64,000 nucleotides of DNA. Origin: Escherichia phage sutha. The position numbers were made by a program, and so were the translations under genes. The notes under the pieces were generated by a model that saw only the letters and a program-made list of their open reading frames with translations, was not told the DNA's origin and ran no database searches. Shown here one piece after another: positions 3,649-26,102 of this stretch (the stretch's first letter is position 1; each line of letters opens with the position of its first letter). The stretch is from the sequence record PV245934.1; one strand, given 5' to 3'.

Positions 3649-4458
3649 ATGCTTAAAGAACAACTGATTGCTGAAGCGCAAAAAATTGATGCTTCCGTTG
3701 CTCTTGATAGTATTTTCGAATCAGTTAATATTTCTCCGGAAGCAAAAGAAACTTTCGGCACTGTATTCGAAGCTACCGTCAAGCAGCACGCCGTTAAATT
3801 AGCTGAATCTCATATCGCTAAAATTGCTGAAAAAGCAGAAGAAGAAGTAGAAAAAAATAAAGAAGAAGCCGAAGAAAAAGCTGAGAAGAAAATCGCTGAG
3901 CAAGCTTCTAAATTCATCGACCATCTTGCGAAAGAATGGCTCGCTGAAAATAAATTAGCAGTTGATAAAGGCATCAAAGCCGAACTGTTTGAATCCATGC
4001 TTGGTGGATTAAAAGAGCTCTTTGTTGAACACAACGTTGTTGTTCCAGAAGAATCAGTTGATGTTGTAGCTGAAATGGAAGAAGAGCTGCAAGAACATAA
4101 AGAAGAATCAGCTCGTCTGTTCGAAGAACTCAATAAGCGTGACGCATATATCAATTATGTGCAGCGTGAAGTGGCATTGAGCGAAAGTACTAAAGATCTG
4201 ACTGAGTCTCAAAAAGAAAAAGTCTCTGCTCTGGTCGAAGGTATGGATTATTCAGATGAATTCTCAAATAAATTGAGTGCCATCGTAGAAATGGTGAAGA
4301 AGTCTAATAAAGATGAAAGCACTATTACTGAGGGTATAAATACTCCTGATACTGAAGCAGTCGGACTGAATTTCGTCACTGAAGCTGTAGAAGATAAAGC
4401 TGCACCTGGTGCAGAAGATATTGTAAGTGTATATGCGAAAGTCGCATCTCGTTTCTAA
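3649..4458 (+). CDS. 22: major prohead scaffolding core protein gp22
   Basis: 269 aa, E/K-rich coiled-coil-like sequence; T4 gp22 size and position. Confidence 0.9.
   Translation: MLKEQLIAEAQKIDASVALDSIFESVNISPEAKETFGTVFEATVKQHAVKLAESHIAKIAEKAEEEVEKNKEEAEEKAEKKIAEQASKFIDHLAKEWLAENKLAVDKGIKAELFESMLGGLKELFVEHNVVVPEESVDVVAEMEEELQEHKEESARLFEELNKRDAYINYVQREVALSESTKDLTESQKEKVSALVEGMDYSDEFSNKLSAIVEMVKKSNKDESTITEGINTPDTEAVGLNFVTEAVEDKAAPGAEDIVSVYAKVASRF
4335..4342 (+). promoter_or_regulatory. late promoter TATAAATA inside 3' end of gene 22 (P23)
   Basis: Exact TATAAATA ~135 bp upstream of gene 23 ATG, as known for the T4 gene 23 late promoter. Confidence 0.6.
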
Positions 4459-4476
4459 TTTTAAAGGTTAACACAA

Positions 4477-6042
4477 ATGACTATCAAAACTAAAGCTGAA
4501 CTTTTGAACAAATGGAAGCCATTACTGGAAGGTGAAGGTTTACCGGAAATTGCTAATAGCAAACAAGCGATTATCGCTAAAATCTTTGAAAACCAGGAAA
4601 AAGATTTCCAGACAGCTCCAGAGTACAAAGACGAAAAAATCGCTCAGGCGTTCGGTTCTTTCTTAACAGAAGCTGAAATCGGTGGTGACCACGGTTACAA
4701 TGCTACTAACATCGCTGCTGGTCAGACTTCTGGCGCAGTAACTCAGATTGGCCCAGCTGTTATGGGTATGGTACGTCGTGCTATTCCTAACCTGATTGCT
4801 TTCGATATTTGTGGCGTTCAGCCGATGAACAGCCCGACTGGCCAGGTATTCGCACTGCGTGCAGTATATGGTAAAGACCCAATCGCTGCCGATGCTAAAG
4901 AAGCATTCCACCCAATGTATGGTCCAGATGCAATGTTCTCTGGTCAGGGTGCTGCTAAGAAATTCCCAGCTCTGGCTGCTAGCACACAAACCGTTGTAGG
5001 TGATATCTATACTCACTTCTTCCAGGAAACTGGTACTGTGTATCTGCAAGCTTCCGCTGTAGTAACAATCGATGCTAGTGCTAACGATGCAACTAAACTG
5101 GATGCTGAAATTAAGAAACAAATGGAAGCTGGTGTACTGGTAGAAATCGCTGAAGGTATGGCTACTTCTATCGCTGAACTTCAGGAAGGTTTCAACGGTT
5201 CTACCGATAACCCATGGAATGAAATGGGCTTCCGTATCGATAAACAAGTTATCGAAGCTAAATCTCGTCAGCTGAAAGCTGCTTACTCTATCGAATTAGC
5301 ACAAGACCTCCGCGCTGTTCACGGTATGGATGCTGATGCTGAACTGTCTGGTATTCTGGCTACAGAAATCATGCTGGAAATCAACCGTGAAGTTGTTGAT
5401 TGGATTAACTACTCAGCTCAGGTTGGTAAATCTGGTATGACCCTGACTCCGGGTTCTAAAGCTGGTGTATTTGACTTCCAGGATCCGATTGATATTCGTG
5501 GTGCTCGCTGGGCGGGTGAATCCTTTAAAGCTCTGTTGTTCCAGATTGACAAAGAAGCAGTTGAAATTGCTCGTCAGACCGGCCGTGGTGAAGGTAACTT
5601 CATTATCGCTTCCCGTAACGTAGTTAACGTTCTGGCTTCAGTTGATACCGGCATTTCTTATGCTGCGCAGGGTCTGGCTACCGGCTTTAATACTGATACT
5701 ACCAAGTCAGTATTTGCTGGTGTTCTGGGTGGTAAATACCGTGTATATATCGACCAGTATGCTAAACAGGATTATTTCACTGTAGGTTATAAAGGTCCGA
5801 ACGAAATGGATGCTGGTATTTACTATGCTCCATATGTAGCTCTGACTCCGCTGCGTGGTTCCGATCCGAAGAACTTCCAACCAGTAATGGGATTCAAAAC
5901 TCGTTACGGTATCGGTATCAACCCATTTGCAGAATCCGCTGCTCAGGCTCCGGCTTCTCGCATCCAGAGCGGTATGCCTTCTATTCTGAATAGCCTTGGT
6001 AAAAACGCTTACTTCCGCCGTGTATATGTTAAAGGTATCTAA
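4477..6042 (+). CDS. 23: major capsid protein gp23
   Basis: 521 aa; MTIKTKAELLNKWKPLLEGEGLPEIANSKQAIIAKIFENQ... matches T4 gp23 by recall. Confidence 0.97.
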   Translation: MTIKTKAELLNKWKPLLEGEGLPEIANSKQAIIAKIFENQEKDFQTAPEYKDEKIAQAFGSFLTEAEIGGDHGYNATNIAAGQTSGAVTQIGPAVMGMVRRAIPNLIAFDICGVQPMNSPTGQVFALRAVYGKDPIAADAKEAFHPMYGPDAMFSGQGAAKKFPALAASTQTVVGDIYTHFFQETGTVYLQASAVVTIDASANDATKLDAEIKKQMEAGVLVEIAEGMATSIAELQEGFNGSTDNPWNEMGFRIDKQVIEAKSRQLKAAYSIELAQDLRAVHGMDADAELSGILATEIMLEINREVVDWINYSAQVGKSGMTLTPGSKAGVFDFQDPIDIRGARWAGESFKALLFQIDKEAVEIARQTGRGEGNFIIASRNVVNVLASVDTGISYAAQGLATGFNTDTTKSVFAGVLGGKYRVYIDQYAKQDYFTVGYKGPNEMDAGIYYAPYVALTPLRGSDPKNFQPVMGFKTRYGIGINPFAESAAQAPASRIQSGMPSILNSLGKNAYFRRVYVKGI

Positions 6043-6057
6043 TCTTTGACGATTTAA

Positions 6058-6073
6058 GGGACCTTCGGGTCCC
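6058..6073 (+). terminator. intrinsic terminator GGGACC-ttcg-GGTCCC with UUCG tetraloop
   Basis: Perfect hairpin followed by T-rich tract directly after gene 23 stop. Confidence 0.75.
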
Positions 6074-6090
6074 TTTAGTTGTTTTTATGG

Positions 6091-6098
6091 TATAAATA
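6091..6098 (+). promoter_or_regulatory. late promoter TATAAATA (gene 24)
   Basis: Exact TATAAATA 28 bp upstream of gene 24 ATG. Confidence 0.7.
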
Positions 6099-6125
6099 AA
6101 TCATATAAACCAAAAGGAAAGCGCA

Positions 6126-7409
6126 ATGGCTAAAATCAACGAACTTCTGCGCGAATCAACCACAACGAATAGCAACTCAATCGGTCGCCCAAATCTCGTT
6201 GCTTTGACTCGCGCTACCACTAAATTAATATATTCTGACATTGTAGCAACGCAAAGAACTAATCAACCTGTTGCTGCTTTTTATGGTATCAAATACCTTA
6301 ACCCAGATAACGAATTTACATTTAAAACTGGTGCTACTTACGCTGGCGAAGCTGGGTACGTAGACCGAGAACAAATCACAGAATTAACAGAAGAGTCTAA
6401 ATTAACTCTCAATAAAGGCGATTTATTCAAATATAATAATATCGTTTATAAAGTATTAGAAGATACACCATTTGCTACCATTGAAGAAAGCGATTTAGAA
6501 TTAGCTCTTCAGATTGCAATTGTTCTTTTAAAGGTTCGTTTATTTTCTGATGCTGCAGTAACAAGCAAATTTGAAAGCTCTGATAGTGAAATTGCGGATG
6601 CTAGATTCCAGATTAATAAATGGCAAACCGCAGTTAAATCTCGTAAACTTAAAACTGGCATCACAGTTGAATTAGCACAAGATTTAGAAGCAAATGGATT
6701 CGATGCTCCTAATTTCTTGGAAGATTTGCTTGCAACTGAAATGGCAGATGAAATCAATAAAGATATTCTGCAGTCTTTGATTACAGTATCAAAACGCTAT
6801 AAAGTTACAGGAATTACTGATACTGGATTCATTGATTTGAGTTATGCATCTGCACCTGAAGCTGGTCGTTCATTATACCGAATGGTGTGTGAAATGGTTT
6901 CGCATATCCAAAAAGAATCAACTTATACTGCAACGTTCTGTGTTGCTTCAGCTCGTGCTGCTGCGATTCTTGCTGCATCAGGTTGGTTAAAACATAAACC
7001 AGAAGATGATAAATATCTTTCACAAAATGCCTACGGGTTCTTAGCTAATGGTTTACCGCTTTATTGCGATACCAACAGCCCATTAGATTATGTAATCGTT
7101 GGTGTAGTAGAAAATATCGGTGAAAAAGAAATTGTTGGATCAATTTTCTATGCTCCGTATACAGAAGGTCTTGACTTAGATGACCCTGAACATGTAGGTG
7201 CATTTAAAGTTGTAGTTGATCCAGAAAGCTTACAACCATCTATCGGTTTATTGGTTAGATATGCTTTATCTGCAAATCCTTACACTGTAGCAAAAGATGA
7301 AAAAGAAGCAAGAATAATTGATGGTGGAGACATGGATAAAATGGCGGGTCGTTCAGATTTGTCTGTTTTATTAGGTGTTAAATTACCAAAAATTATCGTT
7401 GATGAATAA
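6126..7409 (+). CDS. 24: capsid vertex protein gp24
   Basis: 427 aa, gp23 paralogue pattern; T4 gp24 size and position. Confidence 0.95.
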   Translation: MAKINELLRESTTTNSNSIGRPNLVALTRATTKLIYSDIVATQRTNQPVAAFYGIKYLNPDNEFTFKTGATYAGEAGYVDREQITELTEESKLTLNKGDLFKYNNIVYKVLEDTPFATIEESDLELALQIAIVLLKVRLFSDAAVTSKFESSDSEIADARFQINKWQTAVKSRKLKTGITVELAQDLEANGFDAPNFLEDLLATEMADEINKDILQSLITVSKRYKVTGITDTGFIDLSYASAPEAGRSLYRMVCEMVSHIQKESTYTATFCVASARAAAILAASGWLKHKPEDDKYLSQNAYGFLANGLPLYCDTNSPLDYVIVGVVENIGEKEIVGSIFYAPYTEGLDLDDPEHVGAFKVVVDPESLQPSIGLLVRYALSANPYTVAKDEKEARIIDGGDMDKMAGRSDLSVLLGVKLPKIIVDE

Positions 7410-7415
7410 AACAAA

Positions 7416-7431
7416 GGGACCGAAAGGTCCC
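7416..7431. terminator. bidirectional terminator GGGACC-gaaa-GGTCCC between convergent gene 24 and rnlB
   Basis: Palindromic hairpin flanked by A-run on the left and T-run on the right. Confidence 0.7.
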
Positions 7432-7438
7432 TTTTTAT

Positions 7439-8443
7439 TTAACTTACCAGTTCAATCCAAGCCGGACGAAGTACATCTTGTACCATTTTAACTAATTCCT
7501 TTTTAATCAAAGAAGGATTATCCGCTTGAGTTAAAGTAATACCTTCACGAGAAGTTTCTTCCAAAATATCTTGAACAGTTAGTCCCATCACCTTTCCAAA
7601 ATCCTTTGGACCAATTTCGCCAATTTTAGAAATAACGTTATTTACTCGGTTCAGTGTAACGTAGCAAGCTAAAATTCCCAGCAATTTATTATCAGCTTCT
7701 GACAGCTCAACTTTAGCTTTAATAGGCTTATCAGACTTTTTCTTTTCGCTAAATTTAGAGTTCTTGCATTTAATAGCTACACGATTGCCATTAGGCATCC
7801 AAGAAGGATAACAAGGTTTCAATACATAACCTTCAGCGGTAAATACTTCACCTTTCGCTTCGGCATTCCAAACGCATTTATTTGCATCAACTAATCCAGC
7901 ATGGTCTACTGTAAAATTATAATCCTGGACGACAGAATCTAAATCATTTGGCAATTTAATAAGTTCTTCAAATTTACCACGACCCAAAAGTGGAGCCATT
8001 TTAAATTTGAATGTATTACAGAATGATTCCATCATATAATCATCGACATAAGTCACATCACCACTTTCTGTAGTAACAATAATGTCAAATACATAAAAAT
8101 CTTTATCGCCATAATCAACATTCTTCTGAATGCCAGGTCCAGCAAATTCGCCGAAGACTTGATAAGATACAACTGCTGAAGTTTCCATAATATCTTGTAC
8201 TGCTTTAATGGAATCAGCGTAATTCTTTAGAATAATTTCATACCCAAAGAAATCTTCAGCAGGAAGAATCGGTCCAGTACGTTTAGCACAAGTTGCTTTA
8301 TCGCGTTCAATAATCAGTGAGAAATTTGTGCCATGAATCTTTTCACGAGCTACCCATTCGCCGCCAGTCAATCCTAAACTGTAAAGTTTTTCAATGAATT
8401 TAGAATTGTAATGATTTTCAAGACTGCTATACTTTTTAAACAT
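7439..8443 (-). CDS. rnlB: RNA ligase 2 (Rnl2)
   Basis: 334 aa; [20 protein letters not shown]...KIHGTNFS with ligase lysine motif KxHGxN; matches T4 gp24.1 by recall. Confidence 0.93.
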
Positions 8444-19485: not shown

Positions 19486-20580
19486 ATGGCAATTGTTAAA
19501 GAAATAACTGCTGATTTAATTAAAAAGTCCGGTGAGAAAATTTCAGCCGGACAGAGTACTAAATCAGAAGTAGCAACTAAAACATACACTGCCCAGTTTC
19601 CAACTGGGCGTGCTAGTGGTAATGACACTACAGGGGACTTCCAGGTAACAGATCTATATAAGAATGGATTATTATTTACTGCATACAATATGTCATCTAG
19701 GGATTCTGGAAGTCTTAGATCGATGAGATCTAACTACTCTTCTTCATCTTCGAGTATTTTAAGTACAGCTAGAAACACTATTAGTAGTACAGTATCAAAA
19801 CTATCAAATGGATTAATATCAAACAATAATTCAGGAACAATAAGTAAAGCTCCTGTCGCAAATATTCTTTTACCGAGATCTAAATCTGATGTTGATACAT
19901 CATCACATAGATTTAATGATGTTCAAGAAAGTCTTATCAGTAGAGGCGGAGGTACTGCTACTGGCGTGCTAAGTAATATTGCTTCAACTGCAGTATTTGG
20001 GGCACTGGAAAGTATAACGCAAGGTATAATGGCTGATAATAATGAACAGATTTATACGACAGCCAGAAGTATGTATGGCGGTGCTGAGAATAGAACTAAA
20101 GTGTTTACATGGGATTTGACTCCACGTTCAACAGAAGATTTGATGGCTATTATCAATATCTATCAATATTTTAACTATTTTTCTTATGGTGAAACGGGCA
20201 AATCTCAATATGCTGCTGAAATAAAGGGGTATTTAGATGATTGGTATCGTTCTACATTAATTGAACCTTTATCTCCGGAAGACGCGGCTAAAAATAAAAC
20301 ACTATTTGAGAAAATGACATCGAGTTTAACTAACGTTCTAGTAGTTTCAAACCCGACAATTTGGATGGTGAAAAACTTTGGTGCAACATCTAAGTTTGAT
20401 GGAAAAACGGAAATATTTGGCCCATGTCAAATACAGAGCATCAGATTTGATAAAACACCTAATGGTAACTTTAATGGATTAGCTATTGCTCCAAACCTCC
20501 CTAGTACATTTACTCTTGAGATTACTATGAGAGAAATTATCACGTTAAACCGTGCTTCTTTATATGCGGGGACTTTTTAA
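19486..20580 (+). CDS. 48: baseplate tail tube cap gp48
   Basis: 364 aa, T4 gp48 size and position. Confidence 0.9.
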   Translation: MAIVKEITADLIKKSGEKISAGQSTKSEVATKTYTAQFPTGRASGNDTTGDFQVTDLYKNGLLFTAYNMSSRDSGSLRSMRSNYSSSSSSILSTARNTISSTVSKLSNGLISNNNSGTISKAPVANILLPRSKSDVDTSSHRFNDVQESLISRGGGTATGVLSNIASTAVFGALESITQGIMADNNEQIYTTARSMYGGAENRTKVFTWDLTPRSTEDLMAIINIYQYFNYFSYGETGKSQYAAEIKGYLDDWYRSTLIEPLSPEDAAKNKTLFEKMTSSLTNVLVVSNPTIWMVKNFGATSKFDGKTEIFGPCQIQSIRFDKTPNGNFNGLAIAPNLPSTFTLEITMREIITLNRASLYAGTF

Positions 20581-21500
20581 TGTATTCTTTAGAGGAATTT
20601 AATAATCAAGCAATAAACGCAGATTTCCAACGTAATAATATGTTTAGCTGCGTTTTTGCGACAACTCCATCAACTAAAAGCTCTTCGTTGATAAGTTCAA
20701 TTAGCAACTTTTCTTATAATAACTTGGGTCTAAATTCAGATTGGTTAGGATTGACTCAAGGCGATATTAATCAGGGAATTACCACGCTAATTACTGCTGG
20801 CACACAAAAACTGATAAGAAAATCAGGGGTTAGTAAATATCTTATTGGTGCCATGAGTCAACGTACAGTTCAAAGTTTATTGGGCTCATTTACAGTTGGT
20901 ACATATTTAATTGACTTCTTTAACATGGCATATAACTCATCTGGATTGATGATATATTCTGTAAAAATGCCAGAGAATAGATTATCCTATGAAACTGACT
21001 GGAACTATAATTCTCCTAATATTCGTATAACTGGGAGAGAATTAGACCCTTTGGTTATTTCATTTAGAATGGATTCAGAAGCTTGTAACTATCGTGCAAT
21101 GCAAGACTGGGTTAACGCTGTTCAAGACCCAGTAACTGGATTGCGTGCTTTGCCACAAGATGTCGAGGCAGATATTCAGGTTAATCTTCATGCTCGTAAT
21201 GGATTACCTCATACTGCGGTGATGTTCACTGGATGCATTCCAGTGTCAGTGAGCGCTCCTGAGTTATCATATGATGGAGATAACCAAATAACTACATTTG
21301 ATGTTACTTTTGCGTATAGAGTCATGCAGGCTGGGTCGGTTGATAGACAAGCTGCGCTTGAGTGGCTTGAATCTGCTGCTATAAACGGTATTCAAAGCGT
21401 TCTCGGAAATAGTGGAGGTGTTACTGGATTATCTAATTCGCTTTCACGACTTAGTAGATTAGGGGGAACTGCTGGAAGCATTTCCAACATTATACTATGA
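20580..21500 (+). CDS. 54: baseplate tail tube initiator gp54
   Basis: 306 aa, TAATG overlap with gene 48, position as T4 gene 54. Confidence 0.88.
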   Translation: MYSLEEFNNQAINADFQRNNMFSCVFATTPSTKSSSLISSISNFSYNNLGLNSDWLGLTQGDINQGITTLITAGTQKLIRKSGVSKYLIGAMSQRTVQSLLGSFTVGTYLIDFFNMAYNSSGLMIYSVKMPENRLSYETDWNYNSPNIRITGRELDPLVISFRMDSEACNYRAMQDWVNAVQDPVTGLRALPQDVEADIQVNLHARNGLPHTAVMFTGCIPVSVSAPELSYDGDNQITTFDVTFAYRVMQAGSVDRQAALEWLESAAINGIQSVLGNSGGVTGLSNSLSRLSRLGGTAGSISNIIL

Positions 21501-21548
21501 CGGGAATTGTCAACTCGCAAAGTAAAATATTAGGAGCAATATAACAAT

Positions 21549-21566
21549 GGGGACCTTTCGGTCCCC
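21549..21566. terminator. bidirectional terminator GGGGACC-tttc-GGTCCCC
   Basis: Perfect 7-bp stem followed by T-run, between convergent gene 54 and the minus-strand ORF. Confidence 0.7.
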
Positions 21567-21573
21567 ATATTTT

Positions 21574-21864
21574 TTATTTACGGAATGAAATAAAAGCAGC
21601 AACTGAAGCAACTAAACTGTCTTCAATATAAACTTCAATTTTTACCGGAGCTTCTGACTCAAATTTACCTGTTACTACACCTTGGAAAATACTTTCAGTC
21701 TGTTCTGGCTTTGAAAAATTTTCAGAAGGAAAAATTCCGAACTTTTTATCTGTTCCAAAAATTTTGATAAATTCGTCGTAAACCGCTTCATTAAAAGCGT
21801 TATCAGCAGGAATAACGCCTTCAACTACGAGTTCTTGACCTAAAAAGCGCAAAGAAGATTTCAT
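21574..21864 (-). CDS. hypothetical early protein downstream of alt
   Basis: 96 aa ORF with early promoter and GAGGA Shine-Dalgarno upstream. Confidence 0.7.
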   Translation of the reverse strand: MKSSLRFLGQELVVEGVIPADNAFNEAVYDEFIKIFGTDKKFGIFPSENFSKPEQTESIFQGVVTGKFESEAPVKIEVYIEDSLVASVAAFISFRK

Positions 21865-21895
21865 TTTATGTTCCTCATGTTATGTCAGTAAATCT

Positions 21896-21925
21896 ACTAT
21901 AACACAACACGAGGGACTTGTAAAC
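21896..21925 (-). promoter_or_regulatory. T4-type early promoter (GTTTAC -35 with downstream A/T-rich -10)
   Basis: Minus strand GTTTAC-AAGTCCCTCGTGTTGTGT-TATAGT; part of a 54-bp block repeated at 35725-35778. Confidence 0.65.
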
Positions 21926-22041
21926 TACATTTTGAACTTTTTAGACATTCCGTTGACGTTAACCAAAGAAGCCAAGATTTGAGAAACTTCGTTTTCCTCT
22001 TCTTTTGATTCTTCTACAAGGAATTGGTTAAATCCAGTCAT
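21925..22041 (-). CDS. small hypothetical protein, 38 aa
   Basis: Hand-found ORF MTGFNQFLVEESKEEENEV... with ATGA overlap onto the alt stop; below track cutoff. Confidence 0.35.
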   Translation of the reverse strand: MTGFNQFLVEESKEEENEVSQILASLVNVNGMSKKFKM

Positions 22042-24131
22042 TGAACGAACTTGTAAGGAATGTTTGCAATATCTATGCAAGATGCAATAATTCCAAGAGA
22101 TGATTCTACTTTTTGTTTAACATTTGATGAAACAAATGATGCAAAGTCAACTCTGTCTTCTATTTCAATATCACCTGTCATTGCAACTACTTCACCAGTT
22201 TCCATTAAACGGTCACCGTCATAAATTACTGATTCGGTGAGTTCTTCTGTAGTCATAACTTCAGCTTGAATGAGTTTTGTATTATTAGATATTATTCCGT
22301 CATTATTAGAAGCATCAGTTATTTTATTAACTTTGACCATCAATCCGCGTGGTAGAATAACTTCAGCTTCTGATGCTATTCCGAGACTTCCTGGATATAC
22401 AACATTAACTTTATGAGCTCCATCAATTGCCCATCCTATTTGAACTTTAACGTATTCAGGATTTTCTTTATACGCTCTTATTTCGCTTGGATTAATAGTT
22501 ATTCCTTCTTCATTTTTATCAACTGTTAATTCATTACGAGCTTCTGGTTCTAAAAGACCAATACCAGCATGTGTAATTCCAAAACGTCCAAAAATGATAG
22601 GAGTTAAAGAAGTAGATACAAAATTTCTGAAATAGAACACTTTATTTTTAACTAGTGCTTCGTATATAGGAGCAGTCATGCTTTGAGCACGATAAACTGT
22701 AATGCCTTCTGGTATACGGTCACCATTTTCAAAGGCTGAATCTAAATTATTTATCGCAGATTCAATTTCTTTTTCACTCATTACCTCATATCGTTCTGGA
22801 TTGTAGCGGCCTAAAAGAAGATTATTGATGTCGGTATAACCTGAGCCACAGTATTCTCTGATGCCGCGCTTTTGTGATGGAGTATATTTAGAACCATCAC
22901 GGGCAATAGTAATATCAATCATTGGACCTGCACCAATTCCAGAAAAACTATAAATCATTCGTTTGAGGAATACAGTTTTTGCTGCGTTCCAGCAATTTTT
23001 AGTTATTTCTTCCCAGACTTCATCTGGCTGTCCTTTGCGGGTTTTATTATGTGTATCAAGCCATTTATCTTTATATTCTTCAAAGAATTGATTAACAGCT
23101 GCTGCGTATTTCTCTAAACATTTTATTGAAGTAGTTGGTTCATTTTTGATCGCATTAAGAATTACATCTTTAATTTTTTCAGAAACTTCATCAACCTCAC
23201 TTTTTGAAACGAATTTATAGTAATAGCGAAGTTCATTTACAGTTCCTTCGGCAATAATTTTTGCTGCCTTAGTTTTAGAAGCTAATGAATTAATTCCAAG
23301 CTTCATTTCTTCTGCTTCGGGAATTAAAGGAGCGGTAGCAGGTTTATTGAAATTAGCTGCGGTAGATTCATATTTCTGGAATAATTCACTTTCAAATCTA
23401 GAAGATTCCAATGACTGACTTTGTGCAATTGCTCTACGGGAAATTTTAACTTTAACGATTACAGCTTGGTCAGAACGTTTATCATTTTCTTGCGCAATAG
23501 ATGCAGCAATTGCCTCATTTTTAGTTACTTGAGCTCCGGTATCTTTATTGATATAAACATCACCGACCTTCGATTCAACTTTAGTAAAGAGCTCGGTGCT
23601 AATTTCCGGAACTCCTGGAATGTCTTCTAGTGATACATTTTTGCGATGTATAAGAATATATGCATACTTTTTATCATAATCCCAGAGTTCCTTAAGAAGG
23701 ACGTATCTGCCACCTGAACGACTACGGATAAGTCTATCAGCAATAAGTTGAATTTGACGAGCTTGACCAGCAGTTTTAGACTTAAGAATACGGAGCATAC
23801 AGGCATCAATTTTATACTGACGCATCGTTTGCATTGCAACAGTAAAAACTGAATTGATGTAATTAATTGGGCTTGGACCGAGACCTTTTAATTTAGCAAT
23901 TGAACCTTTAGCAGTTAATGTAAAAGGAACAATATGCATCATTTTATCGCCCATCTTTAAATCACGGTTAGTATCACCTCCAGATGTATAGGTACATAAA
24001 CGAAAGCCTGGTTGTTCAATCGCATCATCAACATGAACTGAAAAAATTTGCGGTATTTTCTTCTTTGGATTCAAGTTTGTAATCGGAAGAGTAGTATCTT
24101 CGTCAAATAATTCTGTAATAAGTTCCATCAT
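22038..24131 (-). CDS. alt: Alt ADP-ribosyltransferase, virion-packaged
   Basis: 697 aa; MELITELFDEDTTLPITNL... as T4 Alt; ART-like segments YRAQSMT and FVSTSL; true start may be the second Met. Confidence 0.9.
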   Translation of the reverse strand: MMELITELFDEDTTLPITNLNPKKKIPQIFSVHVDDAIEQPGFRLCTYTSGGDTNRDLKMGDKMMHIVPFTLTAKGSIAKLKGLGPSPINYINSVFTVAMQTMRQYKIDACMLRILKSKTAGQARQIQLIADRLIRSRSGGRYVLLKELWDYDKKYAYILIHRKNVSLEDIPGVPEISTELFTKVESKVGDVYINKDTGAQVTKNEAIAASIAQENDKRSDQAVIVKVKISRRAIAQSQSLESSRFESELFQKYESTAANFNKPATAPLIPEAEEMKLGINSLASKTKAAKIIAEGTVNELRYYYKFVSKSEVDEVSEKIKDVILNAIKNEPTTSIKCLEKYAAAVNQFFEEYKDKWLDTHNKTRKGQPDEVWEEITKNCWNAAKTVFLKRMIYSFSGIGAGPMIDITIARDGSKYTPSQKRGIREYCGSGYTDINNLLLGRYNPERYEVMSEKEIESAINNLDSAFENGDRIPEGITVYRAQSMTAPIYEALVKNKVFYFRNFVSTSLTPIIFGRFGITHAGIGLLEPEARNELTVDKNEEGITINPSEIRAYKENPEYVKVQIGWAIDGAHKVNVVYPGSLGIASEAEVILPRGLMVKVNKITDASNNDGIISNNTKLIQAEVMTTEELTESVIYDGDRLMETGEVVAMTGDIEIEDRVDFASFVSSNVKQKVESSLGIIASCIDIANIPYKFVQ

Positions 24132-24159
24132 ATCCTCTCTAGTGTTTATTTCTATTTAC

Positions 24160-24167
24160 TATTTATA
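24160..24167 (-). promoter_or_regulatory. late promoter TATAAATA for alt (minus strand)
   Basis: Plus tatttata is minus TATAAATA, ~30 bp upstream of alt ATG. Confidence 0.6.
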
Positions 24168-24171
24168 AATT

Positions 24172-24189
24172 AAAGGCCCGAAGGCCTTT
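24172..24189. terminator. hairpin AAAGGCC-cgaa-GGCCTTT
   Basis: Perfect palindrome with flanking A/T runs. Confidence 0.6.
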
Positions 24190-24376
24190 AATAATCTAGT
24201 GGTAAGAGAGTACGATATATTTCAAACTTCGGACCTTTTTCATAGGCATCAAATGTTTCTGTGAATTTATTATAAGCATATGCATCTATAAATTCAATCA
24301 TAATTTGTGATACAGAAGTAGAAACATCTCCACCTTCTTTTTGAGCAACGACAATTGTTTCTAAGTAAGCTTTCAT
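24188..24376 (-). CDS. hypothetical small protein
   Basis: 62 aa, start overlaps gene 30 stop (ATGA). Confidence 0.6.
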   Translation of the reverse strand: MKAYLETIVVAQKEGGDVSTSVSQIMIEFIDAYAYNKFTETFDAYEKGPKFEIYRTLLPLDY

Positions 24377-25836
24377 AGACCAGTTACCTCATGAAAATCA
24401 CCAAATACATCCTCGAATGTATTAGCTTTAGTTTTATCTTCACGTAAACGAATCGCAATCGGAAGAAATAATTTAACGTAATCAGTGCGGCCATCAGATT
24501 TTAGCCAACCGTTGCATTCGCACTCTAGAATTTTTCCAATATAATAATTTTGGTTTTCCATAATGCGAGTACGGTCAAGTTCATGTGATTTTACACCGGC
24601 TTTATCTTTTAAGCCTGAACCAGCATTTACTTTAATTTTTCCACACTCTGATTCAAGAATAAATCCACCTGCTTTAGTAGGGTCTTTACGGTGAGGATAA
24701 ATTCCTACAATTTTTAAATCAACATCAATTACTTCTTTAAATTTATAGAGATTTTTTGAACGAGCATTTTCCCACAATCCATCGGTATTTTTGAGAATAA
24801 TACCTTCAAGACCTTGGTCAATATACTTTTTATAAATTACCTTAGCTTCATCTAGGTTATTTACTACCTGGTTTTCAATTAAAATTACTTTATCATATCC
24901 TGATGTCATTTGTTCTAGTTTAGAAAAACGTACATCATATTTTAAACGAAACGCCGGAAGACCGTATATTTCTACCAACGGGACATAATCCCAGACCTGA
25001 AACTTCATACATTGAGCTTCTTTTTCGGAAATGGTTCCTTTTAAGGATTTATTGGCGATTCCATTAGAAGCAGTACGAGATTCCGCTACTTCGGCGAATT
25101 CTTTAGCTTTACTAATTTCAGGATAAGCATCAAAAAGAAAATCTAGGCCTTCTGGTTCCTTTTTAATTTGCTCATGGTATACCAATTCGCCATCAATTAA
25201 CACACCTTCTGGATGAATCTGGCGGGCTTCAGCAGTCATTTTGATTAATTCTTCCTTAAGAAGATCTAATCCTAGATATTCATTACCAGCTCGTGATAAA
25301 AGACGAACATCATCTAATTCATCACCTCGGACTTCAGCAAAACACCGAGCTCCATCTGCTTTTAACTGTGCAAAGGCTGGAAACTTAATATTCTTACTAA
25401 TGCCTTTTTCATCATAAGAACTTGCCAGCATTTGAGGTTGTTCAGGAATTAAACCTGGCCAAACTTTATTTGCAATAGATACTGAAGCACCGCATTCAAG
25501 GTCTCGCATCATCACTCGACGCAAAACTTCAACATCATCCTTTTTACCATCGGTGATATATCCAGTCAATTCCTCAATTGCAGCATTTCCGGTCAATTTC
25601 CGAGTAGCTAACGTGAATTCAATGAAGTCAAGCATATCGGTAATGGTCAGCATTCCAAAACTCTGGGTAGCAATACCAGGTTTAGGCCATTTCTTGATAT
25701 AATACTGTAACCCACGAGAATAAGTCAGACGATATACCCGTTTAAGCAATTCATTATCTTTATTCTTTTCAAGAATTGCTTGCTTCTGCTTAGTTGATCC
25801 AATAGATGCTATTTCATTCAGAATTTTAAGAATCAT
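24373..25836 (-). CDS. 30: ATP-dependent DNA ligase gp30
   Basis: 487 aa; MILKILNEIASIGSTKQKQAILEKNKDNELLKRVYRLTYSRGLQYYIKKWPKPG... nearly identical to T4 DNA ligase by recall; ligase KxDG motif (FAQLKADGARCF). Confidence 0.98.
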   Translation of the reverse strand: MILKILNEIASIGSTKQKQAILEKNKDNELLKRVYRLTYSRGLQYYIKKWPKPGIATQSFGMLTITDMLDFIEFTLATRKLTGNAAIEELTGYITDGKKDDVEVLRRVMMRDLECGASVSIANKVWPGLIPEQPQMLASSYDEKGISKNIKFPAFAQLKADGARCFAEVRGDELDDVRLLSRAGNEYLGLDLLKEELIKMTAEARQIHPEGVLIDGELVYHEQIKKEPEGLDFLFDAYPEISKAKEFAEVAESRTASNGIANKSLKGTISEKEAQCMKFQVWDYVPLVEIYGLPAFRLKYDVRFSKLEQMTSGYDKVILIENQVVNNLDEAKVIYKKYIDQGLEGIILKNTDGLWENARSKNLYKFKEVIDVDLKIVGIYPHRKDPTKAGGFILESECGKIKVNAGSGLKDKAGVKSHELDRTRIMENQNYYIGKILECECNGWLKSDGRTDYVKLFLPIAIRLREDKTKANTFEDVFGDFHEVTGL

Positions 25837-26102
25837 TGCTCATCCTTCAAAGTTTGGTTTACAGCTCTATTATAAATCAATTCATCATTAAGCTCAGGCA
25901 AAGACTTATGATATGTAGTTCTAACTTTATTTCCTTGCATCCAGTGCTTGACGTAAATGAAACCTTGCTCTACACATTTTTTAAAAATTCGTTCGTCTTT
26001 TTGAGCTCGGAATTCTGGATTGCATCTAAAAAATTGATTTACGTGACCGTAATCACGTGTAGTATTACCTTCATTTTCATAAATAGTGTGAACGACAAAC
26101 AT
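25833..26102 (-). CDS. hypothetical protein (30.1 position)
   Basis: 89 aa, start overlaps the next ORF's stop and stop overlaps gene 30 start. Confidence 0.65.
   Translation of the reverse strand: MFVVHTIYENEGNTTRDYGHVNQFFRCNPEFRAQKDERIFKKCVEQGFIYVKHWMQGNKVRTTYHKSLPELNDELIYNRAVNQTLKDEQ

Follow-up and report, generated by a model that had tools for sequence, protein, structure and literature searches.

The alt locus of Escherichia phage sutha: a T2/T6-type Alt allele followed by an apparent 3' remnant of a deleted second Alt paralog

The Alt protein of phage T4 is an experimentally characterised, injected ADP-ribosyltransferase that acts on Arg265 of the RNA polymerase alpha subunit. About 40 copies of gpAlt reside in the T4 prohead core; a small peptide is cut from the N-terminus by the gp21 protease, and gpAlt is delivered into the host together with the DNA (PMC9958956). 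Alt mono-ADP-ribosylates Arg265 of one of the alpha subunits along with other host proteins, and some early promoters become about two-fold more active as a result of the modification (PMC2988021). A paper on injected T-even proteins makes no mention of Alt (PMC12373910). Here we analyze the alt locus within a 64,000-nucleotide stretch of Escherichia phage sutha (PV245934.1), called the window below; all positions are those of the window, and alt lies on its minus strand. A reading made from the sequence only (the original prediction) had recognized a 697-codon open reading frame (ORF) as Alt, had contrasted its length with the 682 residues of T4 Alt, and had placed a small ORF of 38 codons at its 3' end. 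We conclude with high confidence that the locus encodes a Tequatrovirus (T4-like) Alt of the T2/T6-type allele, and that the 38-codon ORF is the pseudogene stump of a second paralog, Alt2, which was otherwise removed in a 1,951-bp deletion event.

The closest described arrangement is that of phages with a T6-type Alt, a protein found in about 290 Tequatrovirus genomes (e.g. YP_010070024 in G50 and UIU28139 in SA20RB). In phage G50, Alt (697 residues) is followed by a 3-nucleotide spacer, by the 685-residue Alt2 and then by alt.-3. Alt2 is full length in T2, T6, G50 and SA20RB (e.g. YP_010070023), and it is intact at 95% identity or above in about 400 INPHARED records. The two paralogs are 43% identical overall and 64% identical in the N-terminal domain, and the catalytic motifs are kept in Alt2. 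The diverged middle and catalytic cassette of the T2/T6 allele has been known since sequence record X69894. Koch and Rueger are said to have compared the alt genes of T2, T4 and T6 in 1994.

The identification of the 697-codon ORF as Alt is well founded. The gene order of ligase (gene 30), alt.1, alt, alt.-3 and gene 54, obtained by comparing the ORFs and domains of the window with the T4 and G50 annotation, is the same as in T4. PHROG 802 ('Alt-like RNA polymerase ADP-ribosyltransferase') matches the protein from end to end (E=3.8e-270, positions 2-674 of 674), and the search of ADP-ribosyltransferase (ART) profiles that the original prediction had proposed as a check detected Pfam PF03496 at E=1e-35. 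A further family, PF26846 (Tevenvirinae_ADPRT), is listed as a precomputed match, its position along the protein not being stated, for an identical protein in the Logan collection and for all homologues. NCBIfam gave no match for either Alt or the 38-codon ORF.

Comparison with individual phages places the protein among the T6-type alleles. The window Alt is 97.3% identical to T6 Alt (X69894, CAA49518) over 697 residues with no gaps, it is 95-99% identical to Alt in 288 phage records that include T2 and T6, and its best protein match is that of SA20RB. Furthermore, the T6-type alleles of T6, G50 and SA20RB share with the window the late promoter, the ribosome-binding site (RBS), the ATGATG opening, the upstream terminator and the genomic position. 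To judge from these alignments, the window Alt is a T2/T6-type allele and not a lengthened T4 Alt.

T4 Alt (NP_049811) is the ortholog by position, and its promoter, its terminator and its R, STS and ExE motifs are common to the window Alt. It has 682 residues (a coding sequence of 2049 nucleotides in NC_000866), so the length given in the original prediction was right. The similarity between the two proteins is a mosaic. Residues 1-246 are 98.8% identical, the following residues 247-612 only 45%, and the C-terminal 85 residues (613-697) 86%; identity is 27.6% over residues 247-380, and the ART domain (residues 381-630) stands at 56.7%. The DNA follows suit, with 96% identity to T4 extending only up to about position 23322 and 73% identity over 22038-22892.

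The same alignment accounts for the net difference of 15 residues. One extra residue arises when the first ATG is counted here and the second in the 682 residues of T4. Internal additions comprise NEL at residues 299-301 (+3), a Gly after residue 515 (+1), RAYKENPEYVK at residues 552-562 (+11) and IE at the C-terminal edge of the cassette (+2). Subtracted from these are an extra D (-1) and an extra G (-1) in T4, and a terminal Gly that is absent from the window Alt (-1). The two lengths compared in the original prediction were correct. The count of 697 codons is itself partly a coincidence, since one residue is gained from the first ATG and one is lost with the Gly at the junction described below.

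The start codon deserves a separate comment. The alt ORF opens with ATGATG, as it does in T4, T6 and G50, and comprises 697 codons from the first ATG or 696 from the second (24128, MELITE...). The second ATG is the one annotated in T4 and in RefSeq, and the first in T6 X69894. Accordingly, T6-type Alt is given as 698 residues in X69894 (first ATG) and as 697 in the RefSeq entry for G50 (second ATG), and the window Alt is one residue shorter under either convention, ending in KFVQ* where T6-type Alt ends in KFVQG*. By the T4 convention, the predicted window Alt is 696 residues long. The start context is GAGAGGA-T-ATGATG, with the GAGG core 2 nucleotides before the first ATG and 5 before the second, a spacing that appears to favor the second. 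The exact 696-residue protein is reported as missing from the clustered protein collection and yet present on Logan contig DRR831783 according to the gene-position index, a database inconsistency and not biology.

The 38-codon ORF overlaps the alt stop codon (TGA at 22038-22040) as ATGA and ends where an early promoter begins, both as originally described. It is a real ORF, but the evidence argues that it is not a small gene in its own right. Thirty-six of its 38 residues are identical to the C-terminus of G50 Alt2, it matches the last 35 positions of PHROG 802 (640-674, E=1.6e-6), and its ATG corresponds to an internal Met codon (Met648) of Alt2. The last 38 codons of Alt2 in T2, T6, G50 and SA20RB correspond to the ORF, and the DNA continues colinearly into the alt.-3 promoter. 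No Pfam or NCBIfam family matched the ORF, and no Shine-Dalgarno sequence of its own was found when the sequence was read. Where the genomes with T6-type Alt have the full 685-residue Alt2 next to alt, the window has this stump instead; codons 1-647 of Alt2, including the whole catalytic domain, are deleted.

Genome comparisons locate the missing segment precisely. When positions 21500-24400 of the window were used as query, all of the 40 best genome matches aligned in two pieces, spanning about 4,843 bp as against 2,901 bp in the query, and those that are annotated have two Alt-like genes. Against G50, the BLAST segments are 20002-22052 (G50 2-2052) and 22038-25900 (G50 3989-7844), which leaves a gap of 1,951 nucleotides and 15 nucleotides of overlapping homology at 22038-22052. 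In the G50-type arrangement the 3' end of Alt reads ...TAC AAG TTC GTT CAA GGA TAA, and Alt2 reads, in a different frame, ...GGT GAA GTT CGT CCA ATG RCT GGA... at the breakpoint; the window has ...TAC AAG TTC GTT CAA TGA CTG GAT... at the junction. The junction thus falls in an imperfect 12-nucleotide direct repeat, AAGTTCGT(T/C)CAA. The SA20RB genome contains both copies of the repeat, AAGTTCGTTCAA and AAGTTCGTCCAA, at a spacing of exactly 1,951 bp, and Alt2 of this phage already has CCAATGACTGG, with the ATGACT needed for the TGA; an Alt2 allele with the required ATGACT occurs in 45 INPHARED genomes. From the spacing of the repeats and the presence of ATGACT it follows that the deletion would have taken the Gly codon and the stop codon at the end of alt, together with the 3-nucleotide spacer and codons 1-647 of Alt2. 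A tblastn search with Alt2 against the whole 64-kb window returned only Alt itself (40%) and the stump, with no relocated second copy of Alt2. By these alignments, what remains as the 38-codon ORF is the 3' end of a deleted Alt2, not an independent small gene.

The junction is rare. No INPHARED record spanned it in a megablast search with 321 bp across the junction, and the exact junction 27-mer was absent from IMG/VR, JGI metagenomes and GTDB genomes. However, a 38-residue ORF is called directly after Alt (696 residues) on Logan contigs from four independent runs. One of these contigs, DRR831783, carries the exact 696-residue Alt together with the 38-residue ORF, and while its flanks are 2.2% diverged from those of the window, its alt shows ten synonymous differences. 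Because the junction recurs in four independent runs, one of them with diverged flanks, the deletion is real and is a rare trait of the lineage, not the product of a collapsed assembly.

The artefact explanation, in which two paralogs were collapsed during assembly, draws on the known ability of short-read assemblers to collapse tandem paralogs and on the absence of the junction from curated phage genomes. Yet the paralogs are too different for this (43% protein identity, with weak DNA similarity outside the N-terminal third), the 12-nucleotide breakpoint repeat is far shorter than assembly k-mers, and the four runs that yielded the junction are unrelated; we regard an artefact as highly improbable. 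There is similarly only a very slight chance that the arrangement with a single Alt is ancestral, Alt2 having been inserted or duplicated later in the T2/T6/G50-type phages with no deletion here. Nothing specific speaks for this reading, which is simply the logical converse of deletion. A stump that is homologous to the C-terminus of Alt (PHROG 802, 640-674) and that matches the end of Alt2 at 36 of 38 residues is expected only if the full paralog was once present, what survives of Alt2 in T4 and slur14 is the other end, the N-terminal one, and the 43% identity between Alt2 and Alt marks the paralog as old. Moreover, a junction in a 12-nucleotide microhomology between different reading frames is typical of illegitimate deletion. 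As for the length of Alt, the ATGATG opening and the disagreement between databases over the annotated ATG might suggest that the excess over T4 is a matter of start choice only, as the original prediction had allowed. This is almost certainly wrong: T4 has ATGATG as well, so start choice contributes one of the 15 residues, and the rest are internal indels (residues 299-301, 552-562 and elsewhere), whose alignment refutes the proposal.

A more substantial case can be made for a true small gene, in which the ATGA overlap would allow coupled translation of the 38 codons and some function of the encoded acidic peptide would explain its retention. ATGA overlaps commonly couple translation in T4-type phages, and the ORF is intact in four further assemblies, with one variant that has two conservative substitutions and no stop. 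Nevertheless, the ORF corresponds to codons 648-685 of a 685-residue enzyme and holds no catalytic element, it lacks a Shine-Dalgarno sequence of its own, and the overlap was made by the deletion. T4 keeps only about the last 20 nucleotides, which indicates that the peptide is dispensable in a close relative, and the upstream region of the alt.-3 promoter embedded in the ORF explains its retention more simply. The lineage is also too young to carry a selection signal, the DRR831783 stump being identical to that of the window and one cluster variant differing at two residues. On balance a genuine small gene seems distinctly improbable, and the deletion stump, which we infer to be nonfunctional and untranslated, is much preferred. 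A broader alternative, itself unlikely, is that the T2/T6-type cassette alters the host targets of Alt and that the repeated independent loss of the co-injected Alt2 (in the window, in T4 and in slur14-type phages) is not neutral decay but the outcome of selection, for example to evade a host defence triggered by Alt2 activity; in a lesser version of this alternative, the stump would be translated through the ATGA and have some activity. Several points also weigh against our own account of the locus. T4 is the source of the activity, target, packaging and cleavage assigned to the protein, and the two catalytic domains share only 57% identity; late-promoter use is read from motif and conservation rather than from transcript mapping; the ART fold is argued from profile and motifs, the AlphaFold model being unusable; the start codon could be either ATG of the ATGATG; and ATGA overlaps can support translational coupling, which makes the untranslated state of the stump a presumption.

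Table 1. Features of the alt locus, with positions in the 64,000-nucleotide window
Feature	Position	Strand	Remarks
alt coding sequence, T2/T6-type allele	22038..24131	-	2094 nucleotides, 697 codons from the first ATG
Shine-Dalgarno sequence GAGAGGA	24133..24139	-	read from the sequence; RBS in the T6 X69894 annotation
Alt N-terminal domain, residues 1-246	23394..24131	-	98.8% identical to T4 Alt, 64% to Alt2
Diverged cassette, residues 247-612	22296..23393	-	sets T6-type apart from T4-type Alt; holds all internal indels
Predicted ADP-ribosyltransferase catalytic domain, R-S-E class, residues 380-628	22248..22994	-	Pfam PF03496
38-codon ORF, Alt2 C-terminal stump (codons 648-685)	21925..22041	-	ATG 22041-22039, TAG 21927-21925
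Deletion junction, 12-nucleotide microhomology AAGTTCGTTCAA	22041..22052	-	Alt 3' end (K-F-V-Q) joined to AAGTTCGTCCAA inside Alt2
T4-type late promoter TATAAATA, gp55-dependent class	24160..24167	-	exact motif match
Terminator-type hairpin UUAAAGGCC-UUCG-GGCCUUUAA, after alt.1	24169..24192	-	RNA fold
T4-early-type sigma-70 promoter for alt.-3, (G)TTTACA-17 nt-TGT-TATAGT	21896..21924	-	promoter scan
alt.-3 homologue, 96 residues, DUF5498	21574..21864	-	Pfam PF17602, E=1.4e-64; position as T4 alt.-3
Bidirectional terminator hairpin, gene 54 (+) / alt.-3 (-)	21547..21568	.	scan of both strands, 9 pairs, 6 GC
alt.1 homologue, 62 residues	24188..24376	-	Pfam PF24647 Phage_blade, E=6.9e-29; position as T4 alt.1
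DNA ligase gene 30	24373..25836		adjoins alt.1 upstream

The assignment of the C-terminal domain of Alt to the R-S-E ADP-ribosyltransferases is settled, at the level of sequence, by the Pfam and motif evidence. PF03496 (ADPrib_exo_Tox) scores 123.3 bits, where the gathering cut-off is 23.4 bits, and is covered from position 3 to 195 of 196. The catalytic motifs are Y480-R481, S506-T507-S508 and E588-A-E590, and the R, STS and ExE motif residues are invariant in a four-way alignment of the window Alt, G50 Alt1, T4 Alt and Alt2. A sequence search of the PDB found no Alt structure; the solved chains closest in sequence are CdtA, iota Ia and BEC-a (E=1.6e-4 to 5e-4), the catalytic components of clostridial binary toxins. 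These alignments extend from the helical lead-in through the catalytic YR to the ExE strand, so that the YR and ExE of Alt align with those of the toxins, and PF03496 is common to both. An AlphaFold2 model of the 696-residue Alt, built on a 13-sequence alignment of two alleles, had a mean predicted local distance difference test score (pLDDT) of 36.4 and a predicted template modeling score (pTM) of 0.28; the 120 listed Alt homologues consist of T4-type alleles of about 71% identity plus one 97% cluster.

The lowest identity to T4, as well as the 11-residue indel, falls between STS and ExE. In C3/iota-type enzymes the substrate-recognition loops are held in the stretch between these two motifs, and for this reason the target range of T6-type Alt could differ from that of T4 Alt. 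At the other end of the protein, the N-terminal MELITE|LFDED is identical to that of T4. The gp21 protease motif is (L/I)-x-E, which MELITE|L fits, and the N-terminal domain may well be a head-targeting module.

The signals around alt are those expected from T4. The late-promoter motif claimed in the original prediction is present, 28 nucleotides upstream of the first alt ATG, as the only minus-strand copy of TATAAATA in the region, and a late promoter agrees with packaging of Alt into the virion. The window as a whole has more copies of the motif than chance predicts (20 versus 9.3 +/- 3.1 in shuffled sequences, with none of 100 shuffles reaching 20), and the copy before alt is positionally conserved in T4, G50, SA20RB and T6, where X69894 labels it 'T6 late promoter'. 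The SA20RB annotation has a second TATAAATA inside its alt (L010 3977-3984, in Alt1), which might serve Alt2 in phages with two paralogs; a motif scan found no minus-strand TATAAATA inside the window alt. Adjoining the promoter on its upstream side is the hairpin between alt.1 and alt (-13.5 kcal/mol, z=-3.4; none of 200 shuffled sequences folded as stably). A simple terminator scan did not flag this hairpin, which is annotated as a rho-independent terminator in G50 and SA20RB, is identical in T4 and is conserved in T6; it probably insulates alt from upstream early and middle transcription. The early promoter into which the 38-codon ORF had been said to run has an extended -10 and a score of 10/12; T4 and G50 conserve it, and its -35 box starts at the stop codon of the ORF. 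An Rfam search of 21300-24600 at a permissive threshold gave two sub-threshold chance matches only, and thus no RNA element.

The neighboring genes are also those of T4. The first nucleotides of alt.1 are also the last of the DNA ligase gene, the two overlapping at 24373-24376. Wild-type T4 Alt.-3 has no known function, and C-terminal read-through extensions of the protein lead to escape from the CmdTAC mRNA-ADP-ribosylating defence (PMC11618068). The terminator between gene 54 and alt.-3, annotated in G50, fPS-2 and SA20RB, is likely to be the 3' end of the late alt transcript. Its stem is as in T4 and G50, and its 4-nucleotide loop is TTTC here and in HY03 and GAAA, the inverted form, in G50 and T4. 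Gene 54 (baseplate tail-tube junction; 20580-21500, plus strand) encodes 306 residues here as against 320-321 in T4 and G50, a 1-nucleotide deletion near 21488-21492 (AACATTAATAC to AACATTATAC) throwing the final 15 codons out of frame, so that the protein ends in ...SISNIIL*. A different indel gives versions of 307 residues in HY03 and on Logan contig L014, and all 321 residues are present on the Logan contig that belongs to the alt-deletion lineage; the frameshift may be either a true polymorphism or an error of sequencing.

These features can be combined into a model for the locus. The hairpin after alt.1 would block read-through from the upstream early and middle genes, so that alt would be transcribed only late, from TATAAATA, with the timing taken from T4; the late transcript would then pass the stump and alt.-3 and end at the terminator. 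The N-terminal 246 residues, given their near identity to T4, would carry the protein into the prohead core, where the gp21 protease would trim it after MELITE, and Alt would then be injected with the DNA, as is established for T4. The C-terminal R-S-ExE domain would mono-ADP-ribosylate arginines of host proteins using nicotinamide adenine dinucleotide (NAD+). The best-known target in the T4 literature is Arg265 of one RNA polymerase alpha subunit, the modification of which would favor the phage early promoters. By analogy, packaging, trimming, injection and RNA polymerase modification by the T6-type allele are thus expected to resemble those of T4. The ancestor of the window lineage would have carried Alt2 as a second, co-transcribed tandem paralog of 685 residues, until, through the deletion between the imperfect direct repeats, alt acquired a new TGA that overlaps an ATG as ATGA, and Met648 of Alt2 became the start of the 38-codon ORF.

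The locus carries little weight beyond its correct annotation. Gene, allele and promoter type were all known before, and a minor structural variant is the sole addition. Alt should be annotated as a T2/T6-type protein, probably of 696 residues from the second ATG, not as a novel extended Alt, and the 38-codon ORF is better labelled a pseudogene remnant of Alt2 than a hypothetical protein. Nonetheless, the locus provides a clean natural case in which the paralog of an injected effector was lost by microhomology-mediated deletion and the promoter in its 3' end was kept. Closely similar phages differ in what is left of Alt2 (the whole gene, an N-terminal stump or a C-terminal stump), which offers natural, isogenic-like material for probing the role of the protein.

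Among related enzymes, the clostridial toxins and other R-S-E enzymes of the C3 and VIP2 type have the catalytic domain alone in common with Alt. Unlike the binary toxins, Alt has a phage-specific N-terminal half and no translocation partner, and it would be delivered by DNA injection from the capsid. The closer parallels are with the decay of Alt2 elsewhere in the genus. According to the RefSeq notes on T4 alt.-1 and alt.-2, the initial portion of alt was duplicated and the copy has decayed, and the two have been treated as remnants of an alt duplication (PMC1524935). Together with g192c of fPS-2 and gp216 of slur14, they are annotated pseudogene remnants that represent the same kind of event at the same locus. 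PHROGs 23015 and 15247 ('unknown function', about 61-67 residues) match residues 1-58 and 63-118 of Alt (E=1e-21 and 2e-19) and are very likely Alt2 pseudogene fragments of the alt.-1/alt.-2 type that have been filed as families.

The remnants on the T4 side are N-terminal, with about 20 nucleotides of the Alt2 3' end kept before the alt.-3 promoter in T4 itself, whereas the window keeps only the C-terminal 38 codons. Since opposite ends of Alt2 have been retained, the T4 and window deletions are independent. Both spare the last nucleotides of Alt2, and the A-rich region upstream of the alt.-3 promoter appears to lie within them; that the 3' end of Alt2 holds the upstream part of this early promoter is a simple reason for the persistence of the stump. 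Phage slur14 combines a T6-type Alt with an N-terminal Alt2 stump, and fPS-2 a T4-type Alt with an annotated pseudogene. With these combinations, at least four states of the alt locus coexist in the genus.

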